64,000 nucleotides of DNA from an uncultured Candidatus Saccharibacteria bacterium (lineage in GTDB: Bacteria > Patescibacteriota > Minisyncoccia > Minisyncoccales > Staskawiczbacteraceae): NCBI GenBank assembly GCA_964599285.1, contig CAZREI010000003.1, positions 3,595 to 67,594 on the forward strand, written 5' to 3'. Each line of letters opens with the position of its first letter. Position 1 is the stretch's first letter. This document shows, one piece after another, positions 4,506 through 39,766 of the stretch. The notes beneath the pieces are model-generated. The model was not told the DNA's origin. It saw nothing but the letters and a program-made list of their open reading frames with translations, and did not search any database. A program made the position numbers and the translations under genes.

Positions 4506-4674
4506 CTTTGAATTACGAAATGCTTTTTGAAAGGCGGGTTTCGGGTCTTTTCTCCAAATTTTGGCTATAAATTCGCTATAAATATTTTACGTAGCTTGCT
4601 ACGTAAAATATTTCTATCAAATTTCTATCTCAAAATTTGAAGAAAATACCTCGAAAGCATTTCGTAATTCAAAG
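4506..4674 (+). mobile_element. LH (long-hairpin, MITE-like) element, copy A
   Basis: Perfect 18-bp terminal inverted repeats CTTTGAATTACGAAATGC / GCATTTCGTAATTCAAAG. It carries the conserved core TTGGCTATAAATTCGC..apex hairpin..TTCTATCAAATTTCTATCTCAAAA. It has no coding capacity. Confidence 0.8.
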
Positions 4675-4766
4675 TTAGAAAGATAATGGAAATGGAAAAA
4701 AGGTACGACAGTAGTATTAAGGATATCTTTAATAAGCTGGGACTTTTGCAGTCAGATAAAAAGAAA

Positions 4767-4790
4767 CCTAAAAATAAAATAGGATTTTAA
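4767..4790 (+). repeat. 24-bp direct repeat, left copy (3' end of ORF6N including the stop codon)
   Basis: CCTAAAAATAAAATAGGATTTTAA recurs as CCCAAAAATAAAATAGGATTTTAA at 6594..6617 (23/24 identical). Confidence 0.85.
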
Positions 4791-4806
4791 TAATATAGAA
4801 AAGATT

Positions 4807-6558
4807 ATGCCAGGAGAACCAAGCGAACAGTTTAATCAAGATCGGGAGCCTGATGCAAAAATTGTTCCAGATGAAATTAAATTGTCAAAAGGACGCAATA
4901 CACAGATCATCAAACCAGAAGAGATGCAAGCAGAGATGGAAATACCCTATTCTGCTGAAGGTCGTAGTGAAGTGCGCGAAGAAGACTTATCTCCAGAGAT
5001 TATTGAAAAGATAATGGGAAAAGTTCAAGATATTGATGAGTATGGGACGGCTTACCATGTGATGACTAGTGCAGAAGATTTGCCTGGTTTTAGTAGAGAT
5101 AGAGACGAGAGGCCATGGAAAGAACGTCTGGAGGACATTTTAAAACATGGTTTACTTGGCACTGTTCACGAAAGAACAGGTACGGTTAGTAAGGTTAATT
5201 CGGAGAAATGGGTACGAGGTGTCAAGAAGGAAAAACGGGGAGAGGTGATGTTCAATATTATTGGACGAGAATTTCACGAAAGTGATTTGAGCGAAAGAGA
5301 ACGTGAAGATGAGCGCAAAGCAGGAAAAACGTGGATTGAGACAGGAACTTTTATGTGGCAAGATAGTAATAAGATTGCTATTATTTTTGATGTATCAAAA
5401 TTTAAAGAAGTTGAACCAAGAAAAGGAGAAGATTTCAAATTACCAAAACCAAAAACATTTCATGTCGATTCTAAAAAAACAAAAATGAATGAAAGAGGAG
5501 AATTAATGGCCCAATCTGATTATGGCTTTTCGCTTTATCCTCGGGTTGCGCCCAAATTATTTAAAGGATTAGTTTTTAAAGCTACGCGTAAGTATAGCGA
5601 AAAAGAAAGAGAAAAATATTTAAAAACCTGGGGCGACACTCCTAATCATAGATATGCTTTGGAAATGGCCCAAGTAGAAGAAGATGATCCTCAAAAGTTA
5701 GAAGAAAGGGCTGAAGAAATAGTTTTATTAATGAAAAAAGTTTATGAAAATAAACCAGATATTCTGATTCCTGTTTACGATGTTCGTGGTAACTTATATT
5801 GGCCTGAAAAGTTAAGTCACACAGAAATACAAAAATTGAAGTCAAAACCAATTGATACTGCCGATAATTTAAAACAGGAAAAGAAAGAAAGGTATAGTCG
5901 TACAGTTCTTGAAATTGGGTCCGGCTCACTGAAGACACCTTGGCTGGAAGATAGAAATCTTAACGATTATGCTACTGCCCATATTATTTGTACCGATATA
6001 CAACACAAAACTATAAAAGATGCCGCGAAAGAAACTGATAAAAAATTAAAAGAATTAGGCAATAAATTTATTGGCAAATTTGACTACATGGCTGCTGATG
6101 GAAAACATCTTCCATTTGACGAAAATTCAATGGATGAAATATACTTAGCAAATGTTTTGGGAGATCCAAAAACTGCCGAAAAACAAAAAATTATTAGTGA
6201 AGCCACAAGAGTTCTTGCCATTAATGGAGATCTTATTATTGTGGAGTGGGCGACCCCCGAGTATGCAATCGGTGTTCGTAGTTCGGATATTCACAAGGAG
6301 ACAGTTTGGAAAAATGCCTTAGGTTCATTTGTTGATCAATTAAAGAAGATGGGCTTGAAGGTAAAAACGATAGAATCACCAGATTATAGATCTGATTTAT
6401 CCATGAGAGGAGTTATGGAACCAGAGAAACTTAAAGAGATATTTAATAAGAGAGAAGAATATCTTAGTAATTTTCCTTACACCAAAAAGTTTATTGGTGG
6501 CTTAGGAATACCAGAAGTAGCTGAGGCACACCCCTTTATCCTTGTGCTTAAAAAGTAA
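4807..6558 (+). CDS. 583-aa protein: unknown charged N-terminal region plus C-terminal class I SAM-dependent methyltransferase fold
   Basis: The C-terminal third carries VLEIGSGS (motif I-like), an acidic loop ICTD, and DGKHLPFDENSMDEIYLANVL..VLAINGDLIIVEW (Methyltransf_11-like). I did not recognise the N-terminal roughly 370 aa. Confidence 0.6.
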   Translation: MPGEPSEQFNQDREPDAKIVPDEIKLSKGRNTQIIKPEEMQAEMEIPYSAEGRSEVREEDLSPEIIEKIMGKVQDIDEYGTAYHVMTSAEDLPGFSRDRDERPWKERLEDILKHGLLGTVHERTGTVSKVNSEKWVRGVKKEKRGEVMFNIIGREFHESDLSEREREDERKAGKTWIETGTFMWQDSNKIAIIFDVSKFKEVEPRKGEDFKLPKPKTFHVDSKKTKMNERGELMAQSDYGFSLYPRVAPKLFKGLVFKATRKYSEKEREKYLKTWGDTPNHRYALEMAQVEEDDPQKLEERAEEIVLLMKKVYENKPDILIPVYDVRGNLYWPEKLSHTEIQKLKSKPIDTADNLKQEKKERYSRTVLEIGSGSLKTPWLEDRNLNDYATAHIICTDIQHKTIKDAAKETDKKLKELGNKFIGKFDYMAADGKHLPFDENSMDEIYLANVLGDPKTAEKQKIISEATRVLAINGDLIIVEWATPEYAIGVRSSDIHKETVWKNALGSFVDQLKKMGLKVKTIESPDYRSDLSMRGVMEPEKLKEIFNKREEYLSNFPYTKKFIGGLGIPEVAEAHPFILVLKK

Positions 6559-6593
6559 GTATTAAAAATAAAAAAACAACATGGATCAGAAAG

Positions 6594-6617
6594 CCCAAAA
6601 ATAAAATAGGATTTTAA
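6594..6617 (+). repeat. 24-bp direct repeat, right copy (orphan ORF6N 3' end)
   Basis: It reads ..RKPKNKIGF* in frame, but no ORF6N body lies upstream (a stop occurs 15 codons before). Confidence 0.85.
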
Positions 6618-6620
6618 AAC

Positions 6621-6740: not shown

Positions 6741-6762
6741 AATATTTTTTACTTAAAAAGTT

Positions 6763-7083: not shown

Positions 7084-8127
7084 ATGGCAAAAGAAAAAAA
7101 AGGACCTGCCGTCGCTAAAGCTATGGCGGGCGAGGGAAAAAAGGAAAACAAGGCGTTAAATTCTGCTATTGACGATATCAAGGCTCGGTTTGGCGAGGGG
7201 GCTATTATGAAACTTTCCGAAACCAACAAAGTCAACGTGGACGCCATTCCTACCGGATCTATTGCCATGGATGCGGCGCTTGGGGTGGGCGGAATGCCGC
7301 GAGGCCGAATTATTGAAATTTACGGAGCGGAAAGTTCCGGAAAAACTACGTTGTCTTTGCATATTGTATCTGAAGCCCAAAAAAAGGGAGGCGTGTGTGC
7401 TTACATCGACGCGGAGCACGCCATGGACCCGGACTATGCCAAACGCCTTGGCGTCAACACCGATGAACTGTTAATTTCCCAGCCAGATTCGGGCGAGCAT
7501 GCTTTGCAAATTGTGGAGACATTAGTTAATACCAAAAATGTGGATGTGATTGTGGTGGATTCGGTGGCGGCGCTAACTCCCCAGCGGGAAATAGAAGGCG
7601 AAATTGGTGACCAACACATGGGATTGCAGGCGCGCATGATGTCGCAGGCTTGTCGTAAATTATCGGCCATTGCCGCCAAGTCAAACACGATGATTATTTT
7701 TATCAACCAGACGCGCATGAAAATTGGCATGGTTTTTGGGAACCCAGAAACGACGCCCGGGGGATTGGCATTAAAATTTTATGCTTCTGTCAGGGTAAAC
7801 TTAGCTCGGACGGCGCAGATAAAATCGGGAGATGAAATTATTGGCAACCGAGTGAAAGCCAAGGTGGTCAAAAACAAAGTGGCCGCACCCTTTAGGATTG
7901 CCGAGTTTGATATTTATTATAACGAGGGAATTTCAAAGTCGGGAGACGCGCTGCGGGCGGGATTGGCCAGTGGTGCAATTAAGCAAAACGGCAACACTTT
8001 TATGTTTGGCGGCGAAAAAATGGGCGTGGGGACCGAAGTGGCAAAGCAATATTTAAAAGAGCATCCCGAAACCATAGAAAAAATAAAAGTATCTGCTGTT
8101 GCCGGCACGGCGGTGGAGGAGTCATAA
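7084..8127 (+). CDS. recA: recombinase RecA
   Basis: Carries GPESSGKTT-type Walker A (GAESSGKTT), IVVDSVAAL, and the loop L2 region [22 protein letters not shown]. Confidence 0.97.
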
Positions 8128-8129: not shown

Positions 8130-8307
8130 TTACCGTGAATTACGAAATGGATATATAGGAAACATATTTCTTGTCTTTTCCCCAATTTTTGGCTATAAAT
8201 TCGCAATAATTTTTATGCTTATGCGTGGCTAAGCATAAAAATTCTATCGAATTTCTATCTCAAAAATTGGGAAAAATCCAAAGAAACCATTTAGTAATTC
8301 ACGGTAA
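8130..8307 (+). mobile_element. LH element, copy B
   Basis: TIR TTACCGTGAATTACGAAATGG / CCATTTAGTAATTCACGGTAA (1 mismatch). It has the same core as copy A with apex hairpin variant TTTTTATGCTTATGCGTGGCTAAGCATAAAAA. It starts 3 nt after the recA stop. Confidence 0.8.
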
Positions 8308-8437
8308 TTTCAGAATAAAAAACGGTTTCCTGGCAACGCGAGCCGTTTTTTATTTCCTGAACTTTGAATCGCCAAATGCTCTTTTCAAAGAGGATTTGAT
8401 GATTTAAAGTTCTTGAAAAATATTGTACTATACACCA

Positions 8438-8851
8438 ATGATAGAGATTAACAATCTTACCAATTTTGCTGTGGATAACGCCTTTTTTTTGGGGGTTGCA
8501 AAAAAAGTGCTAACAGGCGAAAATAAAAGAACGCAAAACGTATCGGTTGCTTTTGTTACGCCGGAGGAAATCCAAAAACTCAATAAAACATACCGCAAAA
8601 AAGACAAGCCAACCGATGTTTTATCATTTGAAAAAGTATCGGAGTTTAAAGATGAAGCGGTGGAAATTATTATTTGCCCGTTCGTGGTGCGCCAAAATGC
8701 AAAGGAGAGTAAATTGCCACTGAAAAAAGAACTGGCAAAAATGCTCATCCACGGGCTGCTGCACACGCTTGGGTACGATCACGAGCGATCAGAAAAAGAA
8801 GCAAGGGTAATGGAGGAACTTGAAAAAAAGTATTTTGCAAAAATAAAGTAA
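8438..8851 (+). CDS. ybeY: rRNA maturation endoribonuclease YbeY
   Basis: The zinc motif HGLLHTLGYDH is present. I chose the ATG at 8438 (MIEINN..) over the upstream TTG of the track ORF. Confidence 0.9.
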   Translation: MIEINNLTNFAVDNAFFLGVAKKVLTGENKRTQNVSVAFVTPEEIQKLNKTYRKKDKPTDVLSFEKVSEFKDEAVEIIICPFVVRQNAKESKLPLKKELAKMLIHGLLHTLGYDHERSEKEARVMEELEKKYFAKIK

Positions 8852-8869
8852 TGCATCAACGGGAATCTG

Positions 8870-8969
8870 GAATCTTGTATCTGGTATCTTGAATTGAATT
8901 TAGAATTTAGAATGTAGCGCTTTGCATTCAAGATTCTTAATTCTATTCCAGCTTCAAGATACAAGATTC
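8870..8969. repeat. about 100-bp imperfect palindrome built from GAATCT/CTTGAAT words
   Basis: GAATCTTGTATC (8870) pairs with GATACAAGATTC (8958). The centre is GAATGTAGCGCTTTGCATTC. It fills the ybeY-ftsA gap. Confidence 0.7.
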
Positions 8970-8983
8970 ATAATTCAAGCGTA

Positions 8984-10228
8984 ATGGCACGCGGTCACAT
9001 CATCACGGGTTTGGACATCGGCACCAGCGCCATTAAGGTTTTGGTTGCGCAAAAAAAGGCAAATGAGTGGGAGCTTTTGGCCTACGACCAAATTCCTTCT
9101 TTTGGCCTGCGTCGCGGTGTGGTGGTCAACGCAGAAGAAACGGCCAAAAATATCCAGCTCCTGCTTTCCGGTGTTGAGCGGGACCATAACATCCGCATTA
9201 ATTCGGCTTTTGTGAACATCGGCGGCAGCCACCTGTACGTGATTCCATCTGATGGCATTATTTCGGTATCGCGCGCCGACCAGCGGATTTCCAAAGAAGA
9301 CGTAGAGCGGGTGTTGCAGGCCGCCCGGTCCATTAACATTCCATCTAACGAAGAAATTTTGGACGTTTTTCCCAAAGAATTTATCATTGACGACCAGCAC
9401 GACATCAAGCAGCCCGAAGGCCTAAGCGGCAAACGGTTGGAAGCAAAGGTGGTACTGCTTTGTTATTTTCAATCATACTTTACCAACTTGACCACGGCGG
9501 TATTAAATGCCAAACTGCAAATTAATGACCTGGTGCCTTCTCCCTTGGCCGCCGCCGAAGCGGTGCTTACTGGCCAGCAAAAAGAACTGGGGGTTGCGTT
9601 AATTGACATTGGATCCGACACCACCAGCCTTGCCGTGTTTGAAGAGGGTGACCTGGTGCACCTTGCCATTTTTCCGCTGGGATCGGCCAACATTACCAAA
9701 GATATTGCTATTGGGCTTCGGGTGGAATTTGCCACGGCCGAGAATATTAAAAAACAGCATGGGTCGCTCTTAGTTGGCGGCAACGGCATGGGCAATGGCA
9801 AAAAAGATCAAAGCAAAAAGAAAATAGAAATGTTTGAACAGGCCGATTCACTTTCTTTCACGGAAAAGGAACTGGTTAATATTATTGGTCCGCGGGTGCA
9901 AGAAATTTTGGACCTAATGCAAAAGGAACTTAAAAAAATCGGCAAACAAGAATTGCTGCCAGCCGGGATTGTTTTGACCGGCGGCGGGGCAAAGTTGCCG
10001 GGAATTAAGGAATTGGCCAAAGAGCAGTTGCGGCTTCCTTGCGAGATTGGCGTTATCAAGGGCATCGCCGGGCTGGAACAGGATCCTGCTTACGCCACGG
10101 TGGCGGGCTTGGTGCTGGGCGGCGCCAGTATTGATGAGTCAGGGGGCGAAGGGATGTCTGAATTTTTGGGATTTATGAAAAAAACTTCTTTTAAGCTCAA
10201 GAAAATGTTTCGAGTCTTCATCCCATAA
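8984..10228 (+). CDS. ftsA: cell division protein FtsA
   Basis: Actin-like ATPase start GLDIGTSAIKVLV, VLTGGGAKLPG, and a C-terminal amphipathic tail KKTSFKLKKMFRVFIP. Confidence 0.95.
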   Translation: MARGHIITGLDIGTSAIKVLVAQKKANEWELLAYDQIPSFGLRRGVVVNAEETAKNIQLLLSGVERDHNIRINSAFVNIGGSHLYVIPSDGIISVSRADQRISKEDVERVLQAARSINIPSNEEILDVFPKEFIIDDQHDIKQPEGLSGKRLEAKVVLLCYFQSYFTNLTTAVLNAKLQINDLVPSPLAAAEAVLTGQQKELGVALIDIGSDTTSLAVFEEGDLVHLAIFPLGSANITKDIAIGLRVEFATAENIKKQHGSLLVGGNGMGNGKKDQSKKKIEMFEQADSLSFTEKELVNIIGPRVQEILDLMQKELKKIGKQELLPAGIVLTGGGAKLPGIKELAKEQLRLPCEIGVIKGIAGLEQDPAYATVAGLVLGGASIDESGGEGMSEFLGFMKKTSFKLKKMFRVFIP

Positions 10229-10231
10229 CTG

Positions 10232-10316
10232 GCTACGAAATACGAATTTGTTACGAATATACCAAATCAAACGCAACGTTAATTCGTATATTGGTACTTG
10301 ATTCGTATTTCGTAGC
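10232..10316. repeat. 85-bp hairpin element built from ACGAAT/ATTCGT words
   Basis: A perfect 16-bp inverted repeat GCTACGAAATACGAAT / ATTCGTATTTCGTAGC. It ends 8 nt before the ftsZ ATG. Confidence 0.75.
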
Positions 10317-10323
10317 GAATTTC

Positions 10324-11270: not shown

Positions 11271-11428
11271 GGAGTAATCACGAATATACAAATACGATCA
11301 AATATACAAATTTTACAAATATACAAATCTCGTCACCGTCATTGCGAGCCGCAGCGTGGCAATCTATCACATTCGTATATTGGTAACATTTGTATATTAT
11401 TTTAGATTTGTATATTCGTGATTACTCC
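11271..11428 (+). repeat. arm-core-arm element (TATACAAAT arms plus CAT core), copy 1
   Basis: 23-bp perfect TIR GGAGTAATCACGAATATACAAAT / ATTTGTATATTCGTGATTACTCC. The CAT core lies at 11338..11365. A paralog sits at 28800..28955 in the opposite orientation. Confidence 0.85.
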
Positions 11429-13008: not shown

Positions 13009-13070
13009 AAAAGCCAAACCGTACTCCAAAATTAGAAGCTTCTAATTTTGGAGTACGGTTTGGCTTTTTT
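13009..13070. terminator. bidirectional terminator, about 60-bp perfect palindrome
   Basis: AAAAGCCAAACCGTACTCCAAAATTAGAAGCTTCTAATTTTGGAGTACGGTTTGGCTTTTTT has an A-tract on the left and a T-tract on the right. It lies between convergent comEC (+) and 13164..13763 (-). Confidence 0.8.
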
Positions 13071-17840: not shown

Positions 17841-17876
17841 CTTTGCTGCTAAATAATCTATAATGACCTAACTATT

Positions 17877-18113
17877 CCTTGAATTACGAAATGCCCGCTT
17901 AAGAAGACTCTTTTTGTCTTTTCCGAGACGGGGCGAATTGGCTGCGGCCAATTGCGCCTCGCGTCTTGACCATCAACGTTGCGATAATCGGCAAAACTTT
18001 CGCCTCCAAATTCGCAATAAATATTTTACGTAGCTTGCTACGTAAAATATTTCTATCAAATTTCTATCTCAAAATTTAGGGAAAATCCTAAAAAGGCATT
18101 TCGTAATTCAAGG
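17877..18113 (+). mobile_element. LH element, copy C (carries a nested insertion of about 80 bp)
   Basis: Perfect 19-bp TIR CCTTGAATTACGAAATGCC / GGCATTTCGTAATTCAAGG. The apex hairpin is identical to copy A. An extra hairpin-rich segment (about 17925..18005) replaces part of the left core. Confidence 0.8.
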
Positions 18114-18140
18114 AACTATTATTAAAATTAATGTAATTAT

Positions 18141-19520: not shown

Positions 19521-20630
19521 ATGGGCTTGCGATACATGGAACCAAAAAAGAAAAAAATCCTTATTTTGTCTATGACGGCTGGATTTGGCCATGTCCGGGC
19601 AGGGGAGGCGCTTTTGGATTATGCCAAAGAACATTTGCCCGAGGCAAGCGCACAGCACGTTGATGTGCTTGACATTGACCCAACTCTTAGAAAATACTCT
19701 TTGAAAATGTATGGACTGGTAAGTAAAAAACTACCGTTGTTGTGGGGAATGTTCTATGAGTCTGGATTGTTATTTTTCGTCGTTAAGAAATTCATGAGTA
19801 TCAGAGCAGCCTTCAACGATAGCATCCCAGCCTATGTGCGCCAAAAAAATCCCGATGCCGTCATCTGCACCAACATTTTTATTTTGCATTTGCTGGGCCG
19901 GTCTGGCCGAGCTTTATTTAAAAATATCCCCTTGGGCGTTGTGGTAACCGATTACCATGGCCATTCCTTTTACCGCGTTGATTGGATTCATTACTATTTT
20001 GTGGCCACGGCCAGCGTCGGTCAGGAATTGGAAGCTATAGGTATTCCCAAAGAAAAAATTGTGGTGACGGGAATTCCCATCAATCCTAAATTTTACGTCA
20101 AAGAAAATATCGGTGAACTGAAAGCAAAATATGGCGTCCAAAACCATTTGCCGGTCGTAGTATTGATAGCTTCGTTTAGCATTTCCGGGCGCCAGTTGCA
20201 AGGTCTTGTGGAAAAATTATTAGGTCTTGATCCGCCAATATATCTGATTGCAATTACCAGCGGCAACCAAAAGTGTTATGATATGCTAAAAAATAATGTT
20301 GGCGGACACGAGCGGTTTTTGCTGGTCAACTGGACAAACGAAATAGAAGAATATATAAAAATAGCAGACGTGGTGATAAGCAAAGCCGGAGGACTGACGG
20401 TTTCTGAATGCCTTGCCCTGCAAACACCGATGATTATTTTCAATCCTATTCCCGGGCAAGAAGAACATAACGTCGAATTTTTGGAAAAAAATAATTTTGG
20501 CAAACAGGCGGCTGACGTGGATAGAATTATTAACCTGGTCCCAGGCATGATAGCAAAGGCTCATAGTAGCCCTCTACCGCTTTTTGAAGTCACAAATCCT
20601 TGCGAGAAAATATTCAGTGTATTAATTTGA
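19521..20630 (+). CDS. GT28 glycosyltransferase (MGDG synthase / UgtP-like diacylglycerol glycosyltransferase)
   Basis: ILILSMTAGFGHVRAGEAL (N-terminal G-loop) and ADVVISKAGGLTVSECLALQTPMIIFNPIPGQEEHN (C-terminal donor site). It starts 3 nt after the upstream gene. Confidence 0.8.
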   Translation: MGLRYMEPKKKKILILSMTAGFGHVRAGEALLDYAKEHLPEASAQHVDVLDIDPTLRKYSLKMYGLVSKKLPLLWGMFYESGLLFFVVKKFMSIRAAFNDSIPAYVRQKNPDAVICTNIFILHLLGRSGRALFKNIPLGVVVTDYHGHSFYRVDWIHYYFVATASVGQELEAIGIPKEKIVVTGIPINPKFYVKENIGELKAKYGVQNHLPVVVLIASFSISGRQLQGLVEKLLGLDPPIYLIAITSGNQKCYDMLKNNVGGHERFLLVNWTNEIEEYIKIADVVISKAGGLTVSECLALQTPMIIFNPIPGQEEHNVEFLEKNNFGKQAADVDRIINLVPGMIAKAHSSPLPLFEVTNPCEKIFSVLI

Positions 20631-20808
20631 AATTTACAATTTGAAATTTGAAATCAATTTGAAATGATTGAATTTGAAATTTGAAAATGTTACGTTCTCG
20701 TCATTGCGAGGAGCGTAGCGACGTGGCAATCTACAGTTTTCAAATTTAGACATTTAAATATTCACTTTTTGATTTCAAATTTAAAATTTAAAATTTCAAA
20801 TTTACAAT
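20627..20808. repeat. arm-core-arm element (AATTTGAAAT arms, CAT core at 20700..20732)
   Basis: The left arm has TTTGAAAT words and the right arm ATTTCAAA words. The centre is GTCATTGCGAGGAGCGTAGCGACGTGGCAATCT. It fills the whole gap between GT28 and htrA. Confidence 0.8.
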
Positions 20809-25937: not shown

Positions 25938-25965
25938 GTCATTGCGAGGCGCACCGAAGCAATCT
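25938..25965 (+). repeat. CAT-core repeat
   Basis: GTCATTGCGAGGCGCACCGAAGCAATCT is identical to the copy inside secA (60114..60141). Confidence 0.85.
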
Positions 25966-26703: not shown

Positions 26704-26868
26704 GAACGAATCAACACGAATTGACGAACGAATAAACACGAATCACGAATTCTCGCGTTCGTCATTGCGAGGAACGCTAAGCGTTCCGAGCCGCAGCGAA
26801 GCAATCTTTCTATTCGTGATTCGTGAAAATTCGTGGCGCCAGAGCGCCTGATTCGTGTTAATTCGTTA
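26704..26868. repeat. arm-core-arm element (ACGAAT/ATTCGT arms, CAT core at 26761..26807)
   Basis: CACGAATCACGAAT (26737) pairs perfectly with ATTCGTGATTCGTG (26812). The core encloses the GGAACGCTAAGCGTTCC hairpin. Confidence 0.8.
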
Positions 26869-27202: not shown

Positions 27203-27228
27203 TTTACATATAGTCTACGTAACGAGAA

Positions 27229-27275
27229 CATACCATAATTTTCGCGATCGCGAAAATTATGGTATGTTTTTATTT
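27229..27275 (+). terminator. rho-independent terminator (hairpin family ATACCATAATT..AATTATGGTAT, copy 1)
   Basis: CATACCATAATTTTCGCGATCGCGAAAATTATGGTATG is a perfect palindrome followed by TTTTTATTT. A sister hairpin lies at 61159..61194. Confidence 0.8.
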
Positions 27276-27325
27276 ATCCACAGATGGTTAGCAAATCTTT
27301 ATGGTAACATTAAAAAATTCTATTT

Positions 27326-27363: not shown

Positions 27364-27972
27364 ATGGAAGAAAATAAAGGCATAAAAGTAACCAACGCTG
27401 TCTATAGGATTTTGGATTGCCTGCCAGATTCTGACCCCTTAAAAAATAAGGCCAAAGAGAAAGCGTTGGCTATTTTGGAAAACCTGACGCTGGTTTTCAG
27501 TGCCCAAGACTGGGTTTCTTTTCAAAAGGAAAAAGCAGCGGCCAGCGTCATGGATGACATTGGTATTTTGCAAGGCTACCTTCAAGTCGGGCGAGACCAG
27601 GGCTGGATAGATGCCATGAACTTTTTGATTATTACCAAAGAGTACCAGTCTATTAAAAACAGCATTGTGCCGCCAAGAGGACTGATAAAGCAAAGCTTGC
27701 AGATTGCCCAGGCAACGGTTAAAGAGGCGCCAAGGGTTGCCCCAGCAATTAGCACGCAAGCCGGATATATGCAAAGTGAAAAATCTTCAAAGCGGCAGCG
27801 GAAAATTTTAGAGATACTGCAAAAAAGAGAAAAAACTCAAGTTTCAGATATCATAAAAGAGTTGCCCAATATCACCAAAAGAACGATCAGGAGAGATTTA
27901 GATGATTTGCTAAAGAGCGGTAAAGTTGCAAGGATGGGGGAATGGAATCAGATTTTTTACCAAATAAAGTAG
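27364..27972 (+). CDS. helical-domain protein with C-terminal DeoR-type winged HTH
   Basis: The C-terminal RQRKILEILQKREKTQVSDIIKELPNITKRTIRRDLDDLLKSGKV matches the DeoR-family HTH pattern. Confidence 0.6.
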   Translation: MEENKGIKVTNAVYRILDCLPDSDPLKNKAKEKALAILENLTLVFSAQDWVSFQKEKAAASVMDDIGILQGYLQVGRDQGWIDAMNFLIITKEYQSIKNSIVPPRGLIKQSLQIAQATVKEAPRVAPAISTQAGYMQSEKSSKRQRKILEILQKREKTQVSDIIKELPNITKRTIRRDLDDLLKSGKVARMGEWNQIFYQIK

Positions 27973-27973
27973 G

Positions 27974-28148
27974 CACTTTGAATCCCGAAACGGACAATAA
28001 AAAGAATATTTCTTGTCTTCCCCCAATTTTTGGCTATAAATTCGCTACAATTTTTCGGCGGAGCCGTTGGCTAAGCCGAAAAATTCTATCAAATTTCTAT
28101 CTCAAAAATTGGGGGAAATCCAAAGAAACCATTTCGGGATTCAAAGTG
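27974..28148 (+). mobile_element. LH element, copy D
   Basis: TIR CACTTTGAATCCCGAAACGG / CCATTTCGGGATTCAAAGTG. TTA->CCC on the left is compensated by TAA->GGG on the right. Apex variant TTTTTCGGCGGAGCCGTTGGCTAAGCCGAAAAA. It starts 2 nt after the upstream stop. Confidence 0.8.
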
Positions 28149-28218
28149 ATAGGACATTTCATAAATTTAAAAAATGTCCTATCAATAATAATTTGTCCTA
28201 CCATTTGTCCTATCATTT
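28149..28218 (+). promoter_or_regulatory. cluster of TGTCCTA motifs upstream of the sigma-factor gene
   Basis: The 12-bp inverted repeat GATAGGACATTT..AAATGTCCTATC is followed by tandem ATTTGTCCTACC ATTTGTCCTATC, giving four occurrences of (T)GTCCTA. Confidence 0.3.
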
Positions 28219-28295
28219 GAGTCAGTTTTCCTAACGTAATCCTATTGGTTATTGTTGCTTTTATTGCTTATTTATGGTATAGTTTAAGATTATTT

Positions 28296-28799
28296 ATGGA
28301 TTATAAACGGGAACAATTTAGCCTTATTTACGATCAATATATTGAAAAAATATATCGGTTTGTATACTTAAAGGTAAATTCAGAAGAAGTAGCACAGGAC
28401 ATTACTTCTAAGGTATTCTTAAAGGGTTGGGAATCCTACCAAAAACAGCCTGAAATTAAAAATCCTGGAGCTTTTTTATACCAGATTGCCAGGAATTCAG
28501 TCATAGACCATTACCGAGAAAAGGGTAGGACAAAAATAGTTTCTCCAGAAAGCGTCCAAGAAATGGCTGACAAAACCAATATATTTGAAAGGGCTGTTTT
28601 AAATGCGGACATTGAAGCTATAAAGTCTGCTATTTTTAAGCTTAAGAAAGAGCATCAGGATGTCCTTATCTGGTACTATTTGGAGGATATGTCCGCCGAG
28701 CAAATATCGGACATTCTGGAAAAACCAGCTGGTACGGTAAGGGTTATGATCCATCGGGGGCTGGAAGCATTGAAAAATGAACTAAATCAGCAATCCTAA
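28296..28799 (+). CDS. ECF-type RNA polymerase sigma factor (sigma-70 family)
   Basis: Region 2 (IYRFVYLKVNSEEVAQDITSKVFLKGW) and region 4 HTH (MSAEQISDILEKPAGTVRVMIHRGLEALK). The start is taken at ATG 28296. Confidence 0.85.
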   Translation: MDYKREQFSLIYDQYIEKIYRFVYLKVNSEEVAQDITSKVFLKGWESYQKQPEIKNPGAFLYQIARNSVIDHYREKGRTKIVSPESVQEMADKTNIFERAVLNADIEAIKSAIFKLKKEHQDVLIWYYLEDMSAEQISDILEKPAGTVRVMIHRGLEALKNELNQQS

Positions 28800-28955
28800 G
28801 GAGTAATCACGAATATACAAATTTACGTTAATATACCAATATACAAATGTGCTGGATTGCCACGTCGCTTCGCTCCTCGCAATGACGGACAGAACGGATT
28901 TGTATATTGGTAAAATTTGTATATTGTTCTAAATTTGTATATTCGTGATTACTCC
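28800..28955 (-). repeat. arm-core-arm element (TATACAAAT arms plus CAT core), copy 2, inverted relative to copy 1
   Basis: It has the same 23-bp TIRs as 11271..11428. The CAT core lies on the opposite strand (28854..28886, GGATTGCCACGTCGCTTCGCTCCTCGCAATGAC). It starts at the nucleotide after the sigma stop codon. Confidence 0.85.
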
Positions 28956-28994
28956 GTTATGTAACAAAAAAGTAGGTTTGGCGTCATCATCGTA

Positions 28995-29819
28995 ATGACC
29001 GAGAAAGAACTCATTTCCAAACTCCAGGAACTCAAACAAATCAAACCCAGCAAAAGCTGGGCTCTTTCGGTTAAAATGAGCATTTTGGATACTCCAGCAG
29101 TGCAAGCCAATCCTATGTCCCAGCCAACCGGCCGCTGGGCGTTTTCTGATTCGGTAAAGTTTCTCTACCAAAGAAAAATGGCTTATGCTTTCGCGGCCTT
29201 ATTGCTGGTGATTGCAGGACTGACCAGCGTTATGAACTATACGATTCCAAAACCGGCAACCGTCGCTCAAAACCAGGTCAATGGTTCAAAGCAATCAGCC
29301 TCGGCTTTGGCAGCAGAAGCGGCCTTAAAAAACAGCGTTGAAGCTTTCAAAATGAAATCGCAGAACTTGGCCCAGACCATAAAATATAATCCCAAAAATG
29401 CGCCGGTAGCGATACAAGAAATAAAAGACGCGGCTAAACATTTGACCGACGCGATCCAAAAAAATCCACAATTAGCAAAAACCGTCGCTCTGGATATTAA
29501 CAACAGCAACAAAACTTACTTGGATGTACTGGCTGGTAGCGCGAGAGATGAAGTAAAGCAAGATGTTTCCGATACCCTTGAAAAGACTCTGGTTAAACAG
29601 TTGATCGAGGACGCGAGGAATGAATCCTTAACCCCGGATCGCAAGGCTGTGGTAGATATGGCGGAAACACTTGAGGCAAAGGGTGATTATGCTAATGCAT
29701 TGGTAAATATGTTAGTATTGGAAAATGGCAGTAAACCTTCAGATAGTAAAGAAGATAATAAAGCAACTCCCAGCCCAACAGACAGTCCGGATAACAATAA
29801 CGTAAATGCGCATAATTGA
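28995..29819 (+). CDS. single-pass membrane protein, DUF5667-like / putative anti-sigma partner
   Basis: It lies immediately downstream of the ECF sigma gene. It has a short cytoplasmic N-terminus, one TM helix (AYAFAALLLVIAGLTSV) and a helical alanine/lysine-rich ectodomain. The function is inferred from context. Confidence 0.5.
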   Translation: MTEKELISKLQELKQIKPSKSWALSVKMSILDTPAVQANPMSQPTGRWAFSDSVKFLYQRKMAYAFAALLLVIAGLTSVMNYTIPKPATVAQNQVNGSKQSASALAAEAALKNSVEAFKMKSQNLAQTIKYNPKNAPVAIQEIKDAAKHLTDAIQKNPQLAKTVALDINNSNKTYLDVLAGSARDEVKQDVSDTLEKTLVKQLIEDARNESLTPDRKAVVDMAETLEAKGDYANALVNMLVLENGSKPSDSKEDNKATPSPTDSPDNNNVNAHN

Positions 29820-29848
29820 TACAATCTATCGTGCTTTTGCGCCCATCC

Positions 29849-29975
29849 GTCATTGCGCAAAGTCGCGAGCGAGGCCAGCTTTGCTGAATCGCCCGACTCA
29901 GGCGCACCGAAGCAATCTTATTTTTGTGAGATAGATTGCCGCGTGTCCGGCTTGCGAACCGGCACTCGCAATGAC
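29849..29975. repeat. inverted pair of long CAT-core repeats
   Basis: The forward copy is 29849..29918 (GTCATTGCG...GCACCGAAGCAATCT). The reverse copy is 29934..29975 (GATTGCC...CTCGCAATGAC). Confidence 0.8.
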
Positions 29976-30082
29976 GAGAGAAGAGTTACTAATTAAAAAT
30001 TGGATAAGTCGCTGGGTTGTGGTCATTACGTAAGATTGCAACCGAAAGCGCTCTTAATGGCTTTGTTTTTCTCTCGTTTAAT

Positions 30083-30255
30083 ACCTTGAATTACGAAATG
30101 CTTTCGAGGTATTTTTCCAGAATTTGGAGATAGAAATTTGATAGAATTTTTATGCTTAGCCACGCATAAGCATAAAAATTATAGCGAATTTATAGCCCAA
30201 ATTCTGGAAAAAGACCCGAAAAAAGCATTTAAATGTGCATTTTGTAATTTAAGGT
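30083..30255 (-). mobile_element. LH element, copy E (reverse orientation)
   Basis: TIR ACCTTGAATTACGAAATGC / GCATTTTGTAATTTAAGGT (2 mismatches). The reverse complement of the core matches copy B, including its apex hairpin. It is embedded in a further imperfect inverted repeat of about 32 bp per arm (30049..30290). Confidence 0.75.
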
Positions 30256-30415
30256 TTAATACGTTAGGAAAATAAGGGCATTAAGAGACAATAAGGTCGA
30301 CGCGACGAGAAAAACACATAACACAAAAAACAAAAATCCCAAGAATTACCAATCACATTGAGTTACAAATTCGTAATTCGGTAACATTCGTAATTCGTAG
30401 GATATTATATTAAAA

Positions 30416-33400
30416 ATGAATATTAAACAAACAATTATCACAGCCACGGTCGCTTTGACTATGGTTGCCATGATTGCTCCTTTGTCTGCTGGCGCCGTTA
30501 CCACGGCTGATTTGCAGGCTCAGATTGCAGCCTTACAGGCTCAATTGAATGCACAGAACCAGGTTCAAGGTTCCAGCAACGTGCCTTCAGCTTGTGTTGG
30601 CATCACCTTCACCAGAAACTTGAGAATACATTCGATTGGTGCAGATGTAAGATGCTTACAAGCAGCTATGAATGCTTTAGGCTACACAGTTTCAGCATCG
30701 GGAGCAGGCTCAGTTGGCAATGAAACAACTACCTTTGGTCCAAAAACCTTGGTAGCGGTTAATCATTGGCAAGTAGCCGTGTTAGGATCATCTGCAACAC
30801 AGTTTGGTCCTTTGTCACGAGCTAAATTAAACGCTTGGTTGGCTGGTTTGACAACCGGCAATACCGGAAATACTGGTAACACCGGAAACACTGGCAATAC
30901 CGGAAATACCGGAACCCAGGGTTCTGGTCCAGTTACCGTTGCCCTTTCTGCCGACAACCCAAATGCGGGAGTTATCGTTGGAGGTCAGGCAACTGCTGAT
31001 TTATTGCATGTTACCTTTTCGGGTAGCGGCACCGTTACTTCTTTGATGCTGACCCGCTCTGGTGTTTCAGATCAAAACACTCTGACAAATGTTTATTTGT
31101 ATGATGGAAACACCCGTATTACTGATGGGTACTCTTTCAATATAAATGGAACGCTTGTTATGAACGGTCTTAACATCACCGTAGCAGGATCTCACGAAAT
31201 TTCCGTAAAAGCCGACGTCGCTTCTCTTAACGGAAGCGCAACCGTTGCCGTTGCAGTAACCAGTTACACGGTTAATAACACAGCAACTCCGGTAACTGTT
31301 CAAGGCACCACTTTTGCAGTTATTAGCGGTTCTACGCTGGCCACAGCTTATCTTGGCGCTAATACCGTATACAACAGCAACACCCAAGTAACCGTAAATG
31401 CTGGCACATCAGGATACACATTCTGGTCAGCTCCTTTACAGATTAACACAAGAGCTATTTGGTTAAAGACCGCAGCCTTCAAAATGGTAGGCTCCGCTCC
31501 TTCAGATGCTCTTTCAAATCTGAAAGTGTTTATTGACGGCGTTGACACCGGCAAAATCGGCACCGTGGTGGCTATTAATGGCTCAAATTACGTAGTGTTT
31601 GATTTGACATCGGCCCCAATAAGTCTGGCCACCGGTTCACACACGGTTGACATGAGAGCTGATATCCAAAAAGGAACCAACAGAACCGTTCAAATATCAG
31701 TTCAGCAAGCTTCTGACTTCACTATTTTTGATCCGCAAATCGGCGTTAATATCGCTTTGTTGGGCGCCAGCGGAGCGGCTTTCAGTACCAACACCGGAGC
31801 TAACGTCATGATAGCTACTGGTTCAGCAACGGTTGTTGTAGATCCAGCCTTTAACGCTCAAACCAATATTTCTGGTGGGGCGGCAAATGCTGTAATTGGT
31901 AAATTTATCATCCATCCTTATGGAGAAGATGTTAAAGTTACCAGCTTGCAGGTTACGCCTACCTTGTCAAATTTGGCAAGCGTTGGAAGCGTTACTGTTG
32001 TTAACTCTGCCACATCGCAATCACTTACAGTTTCAAGTAATGCAGGCTTTGTAGTCGGCAATTCTGTTACTGTTACAAGTGCTACAGGGGCGGCAGTGGG
32101 AACGGTTACTGCTCTTACCGGCACAACTGGTATGACGGTTAACTTCACAACAGCACCTGGTTCAACATCTGTAACACTGTACGTAAAAGACACGGGACTA
32201 AACAACGTAACATTGTACTTCAATGGTTCACAAGTCGGTTCACAGCAAAGTACCGCTACTTCAGGCAGTGCTCTTACTTACCAGCTTGGCTCTCAAATGA
32301 TTGCTCCAGCCGGACAAGACAGTTGGATTGAAGTTAGGACAGATCTTCAGGGAAGCACCAATACTGCCTATGGAGCTGGCACCATTGTTGTAACTTTGCC
32401 TGCTGAAACTACCAATGCCCAGGGACAAAGCTCACAAAATACCGTGGGCGTTCCAACATCAGCAGTTTCAACCAACGGCCTTTCAATCCAGACTGGATTA
32501 TTGGCTGTTTCAAAGAACTCGGCATACTTGAATCAAAGTATTTCTCCAAATACGGCTGGTGTGAAAATTGGTTCATACATTATCCAGAACCAAAGCACAT
32601 CTGAATCAATCAGATTGACATCATACAGCATTGTTACCGGAACCGGTACTACTCCTACTAACAGCGGAGGAACTATCGGAGGAGGTTCTGGAGCCCCTAC
32701 TATCAATAACTTCTCTGCGTTGAGAACATCTGATACTACCGGTTCAGGAGCAACTCCAATTCAGTTTTCGGGAACAGGTACTGGATTTACTTCAACTGAT
32801 GTATTTTCAGTAAATGATACCTTGGCTCCGGGAGCTTCTATGATATTGGATATTTTTGCCAATACCAGCACAGCTACCAGTGGAGGTATTACCACCACGC
32901 TTAACGTTACGTCAATTGGTTCAGTTGATAACATTTCAACTTCCAGCGGAGCAAAGAGCGGACAGATACTTACCTTGGGCACCGGCACCATTGCTAACCC
33001 ACCAACTTTGGTAGTATCTTCAACTACTCCAGCTCAATACATTGCAACCGCGGGCGGAGCAACCAATGCCTCGCAAGCAACCTTTAACTTTGTTACTAAT
33101 GGAAGCGGATCTGCGACCATCACCGAATTGAAGTTCACAGTTTCTGGTGGCGACGCATCTCCTTCTAACACGGTTACTAATGTTTGCGTAGGTTCAGTGT
33201 GTGCTCAACCAGTTGCGGGTACCGCGGATGTAACTGGTCTTAGCCTTGCTGTTCCAAACGGAGGCGGAGGACTGACTCAAAATGTTTTGATGTCATACTC
33301 TTCAGTTGGAACCACGGGACTTCCTCAACCATACAATTCAGCTGTTTCCCTTGCGTATGTTAAGTACACTTCAGGTGGAGTGACCAATACGCTTTGTACA

Positions 33401-34012: not shown

Positions 34013-34058
34013 TCTGAATTGATTTCCCTTGCCTTTCTGGTACATTGGCTGAAGGGAT

Positions 34059-34096
34059 AAAATCAAAAAGCCGCCAATTGGCGGCTTTTTGATTTT
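34059..34096 (+). terminator. rho-independent (bidirectional-type) terminator
   Basis: AAAATCAAAAAGCCGCCAATTGGCGGCTTTTTGATTTT is a perfect palindrome. Confidence 0.85.
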
Positions 34097-34112
34097 ATGA
34101 TAGAATCAAAAA

Positions 34113-37504: not shown

Positions 37505-37942
37505 ATGAAAAAAGTAGTGATTACTTCTGGCTACTTTAATCCGCTTCACATCGGACATATGAATTTATTTAAAGAAGCTAAAGAACTCGGAGATTTTTTA
37601 GTTGTTATTGTTAACAGTGACGAGCAGGTAAAAATAAAGGGAAGTGTTCCATTTATGCCGCAAGAAGAAAGGATGGAAATAGTAAGAGCTCTAAGGTACG
37701 CTGACGATGTCGTTTTATCAATTGACAAGGACAGCACAGTTGCAAAAAGCTTGCAAATGGTTGCTAAAAAATATCCCGGCCAATTGCTGTTCGCGAAGGG
37801 TGGCGATAGAAATGCCGACAATATGCCCGAAAGCGAAAAAAAAGTCTGTAAAGAGTTTGGGATAAAAATAATTGATGGAGTAGGCGGTAGTAAAATACAA
37901 AGTTCTTCCCAATTATTAAAAAACGTAATTAAAAACAAATAA
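37505..37942 (+). CDS. cytidylyltransferase-family nucleotidyltransferase (TagD / RfaE domain II-like)
   Basis: The HxGH motif in SGYFNPLHIGH and a size of about 145 aa. Confidence 0.75.
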   Translation: MKKVVITSGYFNPLHIGHMNLFKEAKELGDFLVVIVNSDEQVKIKGSVPFMPQEERMEIVRALRYADDVVLSIDKDSTVAKSLQMVAKKYPGQLLFAKGGDRNADNMPESEKKVCKEFGIKIIDGVGGSKIQSSSQLLKNVIKNK

Positions 37943-37943
37943 C

Positions 37944-38666
37944 ATGAAAAAAGGTAACGGCGTAAACGTAGGCATATTGGGACATGGGGAAATTGGCAAA
38001 TCGGTTGCCAAGTTTTATAAAAATCCCAAAATAAAAGATTTAAACAGAGACGACGGCCTTTACGGTGTGGAAATTTTGCATATTTGCATCCCTTATAACG
38101 AAAAATTTATAGATATCGTCAAAAAAGAAATTAAAGAAGTAAAACCAAAGCTGACGATTATTCATTCAACCTTGGCCCCCGGTACCACAAAAAAAATTGG
38201 GGGAATGGTGGTGCATAGCCCCGTAAGAGGAGTGCATCCTTATTTATATGAAGGCATTAAAACGTTTGTTAAATACATTGGTGCTGACGATAAAAAAGCC
38301 GGCCAGATGGCAAAAAAACATTTAGAGAGTCTTGGTATAAAAACGAAATTAGTTTTTCCTTCAAAAACTAGCGAGCTGGCTAAGCTCCTTTGTACTACCT
38401 ATTACGGCGTTTGCATTGCCTGGCATAAAGAAATGAAAAAAATCTGCCAGCAAGAAAAAGTTAACTTTGACGATGTTGTCACGGAGCTTAACAAAACCTA
38501 CAACGAGGGTTATGTGAAGTTGGGTAAAACAAACGTGGTAAGGCCCGTTTTGTATGTGGACGATAAGCCGATCGGCGGACATTGTGTCGTGCCAAACGCC
38601 AAAATCCTCAAAAAATACTACAAGAGCAAGGCTTTTGATTTAATTTTAGAATATGAAAAGGGGTAA
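37944..38666 (+). CDS. short UDP-glucose/GDP-mannose dehydrogenase-family-like NAD-binding protein
   Basis: N-terminal GILGHGEIG (Rossmann), ELAKLLCTTYYGVCIAWHKEM, and a cysteine in IGGHCV that resembles the catalytic GGxC region. The assignment is tentative. Confidence 0.45.
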   Translation: MKKGNGVNVGILGHGEIGKSVAKFYKNPKIKDLNRDDGLYGVEILHICIPYNEKFIDIVKKEIKEVKPKLTIIHSTLAPGTTKKIGGMVVHSPVRGVHPYLYEGIKTFVKYIGADDKKAGQMAKKHLESLGIKTKLVFPSKTSELAKLLCTTYYGVCIAWHKEMKKICQQEKVNFDDVVTELNKTYNEGYVKLGKTNVVRPVLYVDDKPIGGHCVVPNAKILKKYYKSKAFDLILEYEKG

Positions 38667-39618
38667 AACATATTTGGTGACTGGCGGATCGGGATTTATT
38701 GGTTCGCATCTTTGCGAAAGTCTTTTGAGTAAGGGCAATAAGGTTATTTGTTTTGATAATTTAAGTTCCGGAAAAACGGCCAATATTGATAGTCTTAAAA
38801 AGAATGAAAATTTTGTTTTTATCAAAGGGGACGCCAATAAATTAACAGATTTGGAACCAGTTTTTAAGAAAAATAACAGTGACGGGGTATATCACTACGC
38901 GGCGGTGGTGGGAGTGAAAAGAACCTTGGAAAATCCTTTAGCGGTTTTAAAAGATATTGACGGGATAAAAAATGTGTTGGAACTGGCAGTAAAATATGGA
39001 AAACCAAAAGTGGTTTTTGCCTCAAGTTCTGAAGTGTATGGCGAACCCAAAGAATTACCAGAAAGGGAAGATGGGCCCATTGATGCCAAATTACCATACG
39101 CGTCAGTAAAATTGATAGGAGAAAATTTTTGCCAGGCCTATTGGCAAAAACACCATTTAAAAACGTGTTCATTGAGGTTTTTTAATGTGTATGGGTCAAA
39201 ACAGGAAAGCAGTGATTATGGCTTTGTTGTTGGTATTTTTATCAAGCAGGTTTTGGCAGGTTTGAGCCCGACTATTTTTGGAGACGGAAGCCAGACGCGA
39301 GATTTTGTTTACATTAAAGATAATGTAGAAGCTTCAATGCGGGCCATGGAGCAAGATGAGTCCTTGGGCCAGTCCATCAATATAGGGACTGGAAAGTCTC
39401 TTACCATTCTTGATTTGGCGCGCAGGGTTATTGATTGCGCTGGCCAAACGGGAAAGATACAACCAAAGTTTTCCAACCATGACAGAATGGACATAAAACA
39501 CCGATTGCCGGACATCAGTAAAATGACAAAACTTCTTAATTTTCATCCCACAGTATCTTTAGAAGAGGGACTTAAAAAAACCATGGATTACTACCGTGAA
39601 TCACCAAATGGACGGTAA
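38653..39618 (+). CDS. NAD-dependent nucleotide-sugar epimerase/dehydratase (UDP-glucuronate decarboxylase-like)
   Basis: VTGGSGFIGSHL, SSSEVYG and YASVK (YxxxK). The last 8 codons and the stop lie inside LH copy F. Confidence 0.85.
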   Translation: MKRGKTYLVTGGSGFIGSHLCESLLSKGNKVICFDNLSSGKTANIDSLKKNENFVFIKGDANKLTDLEPVFKKNNSDGVYHYAAVVGVKRTLENPLAVLKDIDGIKNVLELAVKYGKPKVVFASSSEVYGEPKELPEREDGPIDAKLPYASVKLIGENFCQAYWQKHHLKTCSLRFFNVYGSKQESSDYGFVVGIFIKQVLAGLSPTIFGDGSQTRDFVYIKDNVEASMRAMEQDESLGQSINIGTGKSLTILDLARRVIDCAGQTGKIQPKFSNHDRMDIKHRLPDISKMTKLLNFHPTVSLEEGLKKTMDYYRESPNGR

Positions 39619-39766
39619 AAAAAATATTTCTTGTCTTTCCCCCAATTTTTGGCTACAAATTCGCTATAATTTTTCGGCGGAGCCGTTGGCTAAGCCGAAA
39701 AATTCTATCAAATTTCTATCTCAAAAATTGAAGAAAATCCAAAGAAACCATTTTGTGATTCACGGT
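39593..39766 (+). mobile_element. LH element, copy F
   Basis: TIR ACCGTGAATCACCAAATGG / CCATTTTGTGATTCACGGT (1 mismatch). The apex hairpin is identical to copy D. It ends 17 nt before the next ATG. Confidence 0.8.

Follow-up and report, generated by a model that had tools for sequence, protein, structure and literature searches.

Correia elements (CREE/NEMIS), which lie in many intergenic copies in Neisseria, are non-coding repeats of about 100–160 bp with inverted ends that form a long hairpin when transcribed, and both promoter elements and a central IHF site have been reported for them; we know of no autonomous parent. The ERIC/IRU and YPAL repeats of enterobacteria are imperfect palindromes of 127–170 bp, intergenic and transcribed, with the potential to form long hairpins and with internal insertion and deletion variants. 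Genomes of the candidate phyla radiation (CPR; Patescibacteria), which are among the smallest and most compact, are generally thought to be poor in mobile elements. Here we describe six hairpin repeats (copies A to F) in a 64,000-nucleotide stretch of contig CAZREI010000003.1 (hereafter the window), from an assembly deposited as an uncultured Candidatus Saccharibacteria bacterium. They are very probably copies of a non-autonomous DNA transposon, that is, a miniature inverted-repeat transposable element (MITE), of an undescribed family in Candidatus Staskawiczbacteria-like bacteria.

The repeats share one general form, a non-coding, imperfect palindrome of about 173 bp that extends along the entire element (Table 1), and every copy in the window folds into one long hairpin, with RNA folding energies of −58 to −99 kcal/mol (z = −12.0 for copy C; for copy D as DNA, −46.1 kcal/mol and z = −10.7). 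The inverted-repeat ends read AC(Y)(K)TGAATTACGAAATG, and the boundary was fixed at ACYKTG...CMRAGT, with ends ACYKTGAA / TTCAMRGT. The terminal inverted repeats (TIRs) have arms of 20–22 nt that are 95–100% complementary (22 nt and 100% in copy A), and helix 1 of the fold is 94% paired over 35 copies. Elements are generally 171–175 bp long, and reach 247 bp with nested inserts. The extra length of copy C, for instance, is an ~82-nt GC-rich, hairpin-forming sequence in the left arm (about 17926–17994) that takes the place of CCAATTTTTGGCTAT (~15 nt). Copies D and F, which share an apex type, are 90% identical. The original prediction had located the six copies to within 0–2 nt of their true ends, except for copy C, whose ends hinge on how the terminal base and the target duplication are placed; the shared inverted ends, the three apex types with their grouping (A with C, B with E, D with F) and the quoted examples of covarying stems are all visible in the alignment of the six.

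The wider family was sampled by scanning one genome per bacterial species with a pattern for the right conserved box of the element's centre, which gave 42 loci (L001–L042). Real copies are present in 37 of these, and the remaining 5 of 42, chance matches without a hairpin, were discarded. The copy-bearing assemblies are 7 Candidatus Staskawiczbacteria and 4 labelled 'uncultured Candidatus Saccharibacteria', together 11 species-representative genomes. Among 120 pattern matches in metagenomes (L100–L219), 73 were again chance matches without a hairpin and were discarded. A hidden Markov model (HMM) built from 35 aligned copies (the 11 genomes and the window) and searched with nhmmer identifies 44 full-length copies in the window and genome loci and 28 more in the metagenome loci, 72 in total; its match to copy C is split in two (17877–17926 and 17995–18113).

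Several lines of evidence show that these elements have moved. An exact 5-bp direct repeat abuts the boundary in 12 of 44 copies, whereas permuted flanks give 0.68 on average and never as many as 12 (0 of 2000). When all 72 copies are considered, 15 have an exact target-site duplication (TSD) in the fixed register and 26 do so if the ends are given 1 nt of ambiguity, meaning that a terminal A/T may be assigned to the element or to the target, against 2.9 expected (0 of 3000). Duplications such as ATTAA, ACTAT and TAGTT show the targets to be AT-rich and often of the form TAnnnT. Within the window, copies C and E have exact duplications and D and F have repeats lying one base outside each end: GTAGG and ATAGG (4 of 5 matching) around D, and ATTAC at 39587–39591 and 39768–39772 around F. 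The duplicated target of copy D takes in the TAG stop of the upstream gene. One genome contains copies that are 100% identical at different sites (L014/L025), and another has three copies at 98–99% identity (L020/L031/L036) with different flanks and their own duplications; the family has thus been active recently in at least two genomes. Genomes with identical copies are RIFCSPLOWO2_01_FULL_33_13 and isolate nzgw417. Orthologous spacers also differ in whether they hold the element, as in a spacer of 52 bp in L010 that measures 227 bp with the element in L024, though these spacers are too diverged for an exact cross-species alignment of empty sites, and only presence or absence and length differences are usable. 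Internally deleted minis that retain both ends exist as well. We also note a pair of segments on one contig (L036 6561–6751 and L037 4148–4338), in opposite orientation and 99% identical over 191 nt, that is, over the element and ~9 nt of flank on each side, which reflects either movement of a slightly larger unit or a local inverted duplication.

The sole reading frame is a 16-codon ATG frame in the left arm, which is lost in copies with the end GAAACTC. We considered a small peptide for this frame and rejected it, since the left-end ATG is in frame in two subtypes and missing in others. Given the small size, the TSDs and the lack of a conserved frame, the repeats show every structural feature of a MITE bar an identified autonomous parent. 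The mobile, MITE-like nature first proposed for them is therefore supported, with the 5-bp TSDs and the near-identical copies at different sites as added evidence. Such elements would be transposed in trans by a cut-and-paste (DDE-type) transposase making 5-bp staggered cuts. Two observations count against this interpretation: an exact duplication is found in only 15–26 of the 72 copies, the rest being degraded or having ends mis-set by a base, and searches of the window (50 open reading frames, ORFs), of ~330 kb of flanking genome loci and of collections of viruses, plasmids and phages turned up no transposase with matching ends.

All copies are intergenic and lie in AT-rich spacers, often occupying the whole spacer with gaps of 0–20 nt to the neighbouring genes; the stop codon of recA, for instance, is 4 nt from the start of copy B. 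Of the ~5.9 kb of intergenic DNA in the window, the family accounts for about 1.1 kb (~19%). Two ORFs, 4121–4570 (an ORF6N-domain protein, upstream of copy A) and 38653–39618 (an epimerase), run on into copies A and F, where they stop after 66 nt and 26 nt, respectively, so that the insertions provide their C-terminal codons and stop codons.

Table 1. Positions in the window of the six copies of the family (family 1) and of their central modules, with the element's end sequence.
Feature	Position	Strand	Description
Copy A	4505..4675	+	full-length family-1 element, 171 bp; TIRs 4505-4526 and 4654-4675; apex type 1 (TTTTACGTAGC-TTGC-TACGTAAAA)
Copy B	8132..8305	+	174 bp; between recA (7084-8127) and ybeY (8423-8851); apex type 2
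Copy C	17876..18114	+	239 bp; apex type 1; exact 5-bp direct repeat ACTAT at 17871-17875 and 18115-18119
Copy D	27975..28147	+	173 bp; begins 2 nt past the stop of ORF 27364-27972; apex type 3
Copy E	30083..30255	-	173 bp; the sole inverted copy in the window; apex type 2; exact 5-bp TSD ATTAA (element orientation) at 30078-30082 and 30256-30260
Copy F	39593..39766	+	174 bp; between ORF 38653-39618 (epimerase) and ORF 39783-40724; apex type 3
Central module, copy D	28032..28107	+	left box (GGCTATAAATTCGCTACAAT), apical hairpin, right box (TTCTATCAAATTTCTATCTC)
Central module, copy A	4563-4635	+	equivalent
Central module, copy B	8191-8265	+	equivalent
Central module, copy C	18008-18074	+	equivalent
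Central module, copy E	30123-30197	-	equivalent
Central module, copy F	39651-39726	+	equivalent
Family-1 element end sequence			ACYKTGAATTACGAAATG

The second main finding concerns how the palindrome is maintained. In the 35 copies behind the HMM, a consensus fold of 59 pairs gives 2064 cells, 95.6% of which are standard pairs (G-C, A-U or G-U), a level that 0 of 500 shuffles match; if the partner columns are slid out of register, only 28–60% are paired. Both sides have changed in 39 of the 59 pairs (257 cells), and the compensatory changes originally seen in the six copies thus hold after more are added. Of the 2064 cells, 13 are G·T (0.6%), 44 A·C and 47 other mismatches. As the copies are related by descent, these cell counts are not independent events. 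States in which one side alone has changed are nearly absent, and many of the double changes are transversion swaps (U-A to G-C, A-U to U-A, C-G to G-C), which are impossible via a wobble intermediate. Nor is there a preferred orientation: relative to co-directional flanking genes (taken in the loci from simple longest-ORF calls), 16 copies point the same way and 21 the opposite way, and the 5 of 6 bias among the window copies is not general. The rarity of wobble pairs, the transversion swaps without one-sided states and the random orientation together place the constraint at the DNA level, where the complementarity of the arms is maintained.

The likeliest mechanism would be template switching within the element ('quasipalindrome correction'), whereby a mismatch is copied to the other arm or erased. 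This process is established in E. coli, where a single step suffices to make a mismatch a perfect pair, and it predicts strict Watson–Crick compensatory changes with no wobble intermediates. A requirement that both ends look alike to the transposase may act in addition. On the other side, A·C mismatches outnumber G·T (44 vs 13) and the reverse strand of the copies folds 4–15 kcal/mol better, which leaves room for tolerance at the RNA level on that strand, and template switching is itself read from the pattern of changes. The family offers a clear case in nature of a long palindrome whose complementarity is kept up at the DNA level while its mismatched centre is held constant by selection.

This centre has the layout AAATTYGCWATAAT-hairpin-AATTCTATCAAATTT. 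The right core motif occurs 6 times in the window against 0.00 expected, and the left core motif GGCTATAAATTCGC, allowing up to 2 mismatches, has 6 matches against 0.91 expected, five of which fall within copies A, B, D, E and F, while the sixth (45076–45089) lies outside any copy, with copy C unmatched. The invariance of the right box in L001–L042 and of both boxes in L100–L219 stems in part from the patterns by which these loci were fetched, and is free of such bias only in the comparison of unselected copies and in bystander matches. In the pattern-unselected copies (the six in the window and nine bystanders), conservation by column is highest in AAATTYGCWATAAT on the left and in AATTCTATCAAATTT on the right; the invariant columns on the left read AAAT(T/C)(C/T)GC(A/T)ATAAT, and the arms and apex vary. 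A core that is asymmetric and conserved in sequence, as first described from six copies, is thus confirmed in the alignment and in the unselected copies. The two boxes are nearly complementary and retain fixed C·T and T·C mismatches, which in an otherwise self-correcting palindrome argues for selection on the box sequences.

When the HMM matches only at the centre, the matches lie within other hairpins of ~175 bp whose arms are unrelated to those of family 1. One such type of hairpin MITE, ~175 bp with the ends AGACC...GGTCT, combines a variable yet well-paired outer stem with a conserved asymmetric loop (TACTGCAAATTGCA / TTCAATTTTCGTAAC) and the same centre, and is found at L019 6240–6420, L004 1050–1225, L031 2750–2920, L135 8790–8960 and 9760–9935, and in many of the loci L100–L219. 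Of 25 rows scored, 22 of which are of the AGACC type, 17 show an exact 3-bp duplication (AAT, ATT, TAT or AGT), compared to 4.7 expected (0 of 5000). A third type, AAACCG...CGGTTT, has CTTAG or ATTAG on both sides and the same central module (L030 4680–4830; L032 5130–5300; L134 7320–7480; L188 8330–8500; L132 2200–2349); its CTTAG may be a duplication specific to the target or else belong to the end itself. Conversely, one family-1 copy has a different, GC-rich centre (L034 4942–5103). With the module on unrelated arms and a family-1 copy with another centre, the arms are the transposition chassis and the conserved centre is portable cargo, carried also by at least two other hairpin MITE types.

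What the cargo does is a matter on which two proposals are equally live. The first, which we advance tentatively from sequence motifs, is that the module may be a bidirectional promoter, with face-to-face extended −10 elements, (TG)CTATAAT and TGATAGAAT, on opposite strands. Read toward the apex, the left box is (T/C)GC-TATAAT and the right box, as its reverse complement, TG-A-TAGAAT; the latter, TGATAGAAT, matches the extended −10 motif of the lineage (TGnTAnAAT). Among 280 predicted genes of the loci and window (simple longest-ORF calls in the loci), TGnTAnAAT ends 0–19 nt before a start codon, outside the elements, 12 times on the sense strand compared to once on the antisense strand, with TTGACT ~15 nt upstream in some of the sense cases. 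Start-proximal examples in the window are at 869, 34098, 57051 and 57741, and the matches in non-element intergenic DNA of the window lie 15–34 nt upstream of gene starts. The exact 9-mer TGATAGAAT is found 6–7 nt before two start codons, those of the window gene at 34113 and of L040 1511–2254. It seems from these cases that the lineage often uses extended −10 promoters, with mRNAs that are leaderless or nearly so.

In such a promoter each box would fire across the apical hairpin and out via the opposite arm, and the hairpin would form a 5′-terminal stem in both transcripts. An insertion in a tight operon would still drive the flanking genes in either orientation, which would explain the persistence of copies that bear the module, and the same reading would account for the random orientation, the conserved mismatches of TATAAT with TAGAAT, the retained apical hairpin and the recurrence of the module on several chassis. 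If the module is a two-way promoter, the elements would rank among the chief sources of regulatory change in organisms not yet growable alone, and the module a ready-made sequence for studying CPR promoters in metatranscriptomes. A more doubtful extension is that it could be a mobile, orientation-independent promoter cassette with a 5′-stabilising hairpin, acquired by at least three unrelated MITE chassis; if true, a sizeable share of the operon-internal promoters in these ~1-Mb CPR genomes, with their near lack of intergenic DNA, would be delivered and reshuffled by MITEs.

Several observations detract from a promoter. The module has no conserved −35 element. The right-box reverse complement TGATAGAAT is present in most copies elsewhere, yet in the window it is kept in full in only 3 of 6 copies (D, E and F), B being without the TG and A and C without T6, and in this A/C subtype the final T is changed in both hexamers. 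The left box takes the forms TATAAT, AATAAT and TACAAT, and though TG precedes it in nearly all AGACC-type copies, it does so in only about a third of family-1 copies and is missing from the other two thirds. Additionally, the right-box invariance in L001–L042 and L100–L219 is in part an artefact of the search pattern.

The second proposal, to which we attach the same tentative standing, keeps the MITE and takes the central boxes as a binding site, whether for the transposase, an architectural protein like IHF or HU, or a regulator. A protein or ribonucleoprotein site at the unpaired core was also the suggestion of the original prediction. The boxes are the most conserved columns even in unselected copies, their C·T and T·C mismatches are invariant inside a palindrome that corrects itself, and CTAT is repeated four times in the same direction, 11 nt apart on either side. 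The site of a single transposase is harder to reconcile with a module common to MITEs whose ends and duplications differ (5 bp, 3 bp, CTTAG), and no candidate binding protein was found. In the main subtype the right box agrees at 12 of 13 positions with a putative IHF core, WATCAANNNNTTR, though other subtypes do not conserve the 3′ portion of this agreement. As it matches in one subtype only, we did not adopt an IHF site and retain it as a weak rival. Less likely is that the mismatch-bearing hairpin is a recognition structure for a structure-specific mobilisation enzyme, with arms that are free to vary. A rolling-circle nick site was considered and rejected, TTGATA in the right-box reverse complement being too short and the target duplications favouring a staggered-cut transposase.

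A much less probable explanation is that the copies are a structured RNA gene or cis-element, a long double-stranded rod whose conserved internal loop is bound by protein and whose RNA fold is selected; the original prediction had leaned this way in proposing selection on a folded rod, as DNA cruciform or RNA. The very stable folds (z = −12) and the strong covariation are what one would expect of such an RNA. The better-folding reverse strand also fits, as its conserved mismatches are A·G and G·A and its wobble-compatible cells outnumber A·C by 44 to 13. The copies are almost certainly transcribed within mRNAs, given their location inside operons with gaps of 0–20 nt, though surely as passengers. 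Against this, wobble pairs account for just 0.6% (forward strand) and 2.1% (reverse strand) of cells, not above other mismatches (2.3%); the double changes are mostly transversion swaps without one-sided intermediates; the orientation relative to host transcription is unbiased; and the target-site duplications show that the copies are insertions. Rfam at gathering thresholds gives nothing over the whole window, and a permissive scan for known RNA families gives only generic hairpin matches far below threshold, mostly plant and animal miRNA precursors that share the hairpin shape. An intrinsic terminator was also rejected: the apex is a T-run, hairpin and A-run on both strands with no U-tail, and in the one region scanned (27800–30500, with copies D and E) there was no terminator-like site in the copies. 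A folded RNA under selection is thus unsupported, and constraint on the DNA is the reading we keep.

The absence of a transposase from the window, as first noted, was borne out by a scan of its 50 ORFs against Pfam, none of which is recognisable as one. The proposed search for a transposase gene flanked by the same TIRs covered the window and ~1.1 Mb of fetched loci in all, including about 780 kb of metagenome loci, and found no autonomous element with the family's ends; allowing up to 2 mismatches in the ends, all loci gave only MITE pairs, deletion minis and chance single matches. Viral contigs gave 0 matches to the right-box-containing pattern AATTCTATCAAATTTCTATC and 57 single chance matches to the end pattern (a 16-nt end match), none with the element by nhmmer. 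Comparison by blastn to plasmid and phage records gave no match, no association with tRNA or tmRNA was found, and the searchable literature on MITEs or hairpin repeats in CPR, Parcubacteria and Patescibacteria holds nothing relevant. The view that the element belongs to no named family therefore stands after searches of Rfam, plasmids, phages and viral contigs. That the copies are remnants of a known insertion sequence (IS), internally deleted and with ends palindromic by chance, is very improbable: they have inverted ends and target duplications as IS-derived MITEs do, and ends starting with AC plus a 3–9 bp duplication may recall the IS982 family, but there is no plasmid or phage similarity at blastn sensitivity, the element is absent from the 57 viral contigs with an end match, no copy has its halves split by an ORF, and complementarity spans the whole 173 bp, which a simple end-to-end deletion product would not show.

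The window itself is ordinary core chromosome, encoding FtsK, RecA, YbeY, FtsA, FtsZ, ComEC, ClpB, HtrA and SecA, together with cell-wall and polysaccharide genes and two toxin–antitoxin pairs. To judge from its sequence, the host is a Staskawiczbacteria-like member of the CPR (Parcubacteria). The Saccharibacteria-labelled assemblies (L001, L007, L012, L015–L017, L021, L022, L034, L035, L038–L040) have syntenic genes at 66–95% amino acid identity to the Staskawiczbacteria loci, which puts them in the same lineage, and the ClpB of the window shares 86% identity with its counterpart in one of these genomes. Their label of 'uncultured Candidatus Saccharibacteria' thus looks wrong or very loose. 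For practical purposes, the repeats of this family will break or mis-join metagenome assemblies of the lineage, and the HMM and consensus can be used to flag them.

Other repeats are nested in family-1 copies. An ~80-nt insert (ATATGCAAAGCATAT...CTATCCTCGG) with its own subterminal hairpins lies directly after CTAT in the left or right box of some copies (L005 149–223; L017 ~1928–1993; L016 ~94–175), and its position 3′ of a tetranucleotide is reminiscent of mini elements derived from IS200/IS605. Imperfect hairpins rich in GC (GAGACGGGGCG...CGCCTCGCGTC and related sequences) lie within copies, or stand in for parts of them, at 17926–17994 in the window (copy C), L023 ~1165–1240, L041 ~4085–4125, L128 5356–5386 and L034 5000–5060, and their 9-mer GACGGGGCG recurs in 9 loci.

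The window and the related loci hold further repeats. A ~155-bp long-hairpin repeat (GGAGTAATCACGAATATACAAAT..., with short repeats of ACGAAT/ATACAAAT) at 11271–11428 and 28800–28955 in the window, L025 5037–5178 and L214 3119–3163 is probably a further mobile hairpin family. Long imperfect inverted repeats of short tandem motifs (GAATCT, ACGAAT, AATTTGAAATTT) occupy other spacers of the window (8863–8976, 10227–10321, 20624–20802, 26727–26867), and similar low-complexity hairpins lie in spacers of related loci. A GC-rich repeat, CATTGCGAGG...GAAGCAATC, occurs three times in the window (25940–25964, 26763–26806 and 60116–60140), the third inside the 3′ end of the secA ORF (57775–60267). Perfect or near-perfect palindromes of 21–30 nt with no or tiny loops and A/T-run flanks (AAAAGCCAAACCG...CGGTTTGGCTTTT; window 13009–13068, 27227–27268, 34057–34098, 55851–55902) are probably bidirectional terminators at gene ends. 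Additionally, perfect DnaA-box sequences, TTATCCACA, are found in spacers adjoining elements (window 27274–27282 on the forward and 8470–8478 on the reverse strand; L013 ~4075; L028 ~5640; L029 ~1445), often 10–20 nt upstream of a TTGAC-like hexamer.

Several described systems resemble the family in part. REP/BIME repeats, which are mobilised by RAYT, are palindromes of 20–40 nt with no TSD and an HUH transposase, whereas the present elements are 173 bp long with a 5-bp TSD, and no such gene was seen in the scanned ORFs. Integron attC sites, such as the Vibrio VCRs, are intergenic imperfect palindromes of 60–140 bp in which structure is conserved more than sequence, with conserved mismatches and a variable apex as here; they differ in that our elements have no GTTRRRY/RYYYAAC boxes at their ends, are in mixed orientation, have TSDs and come with no integrase, and their neighbours are housekeeping genes (recA, ftsZ, clpB, secA), unlike a cassette array. 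The IS-derived MITEs RUP of Streptococcus pneumoniae and Nezha of cyanobacteria are likewise small, with TIRs, TSDs, subfamilies and bursts of near-identical copies; they have an identified parent IS with the same ends, an interior that is usually not complementary end to end, and no shared cargo module.

The resemblance to the ERIC and Correia architectures that had been pointed out from the window alone is upheld. ERIC repeats are unrelated in sequence, as Rfam gives only weak generic hairpin matches, and lack the clear target duplications and evidence of recent mobility that the present family has. Correia elements are the closest in both function and architecture, though the family is not a member, as its duplication is 5 bp and AT-rich rather than the TA of Correia elements. 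It is further set apart by a palindrome that covers the whole length, a centre shared with other types of MITE, and a host in the CPR.

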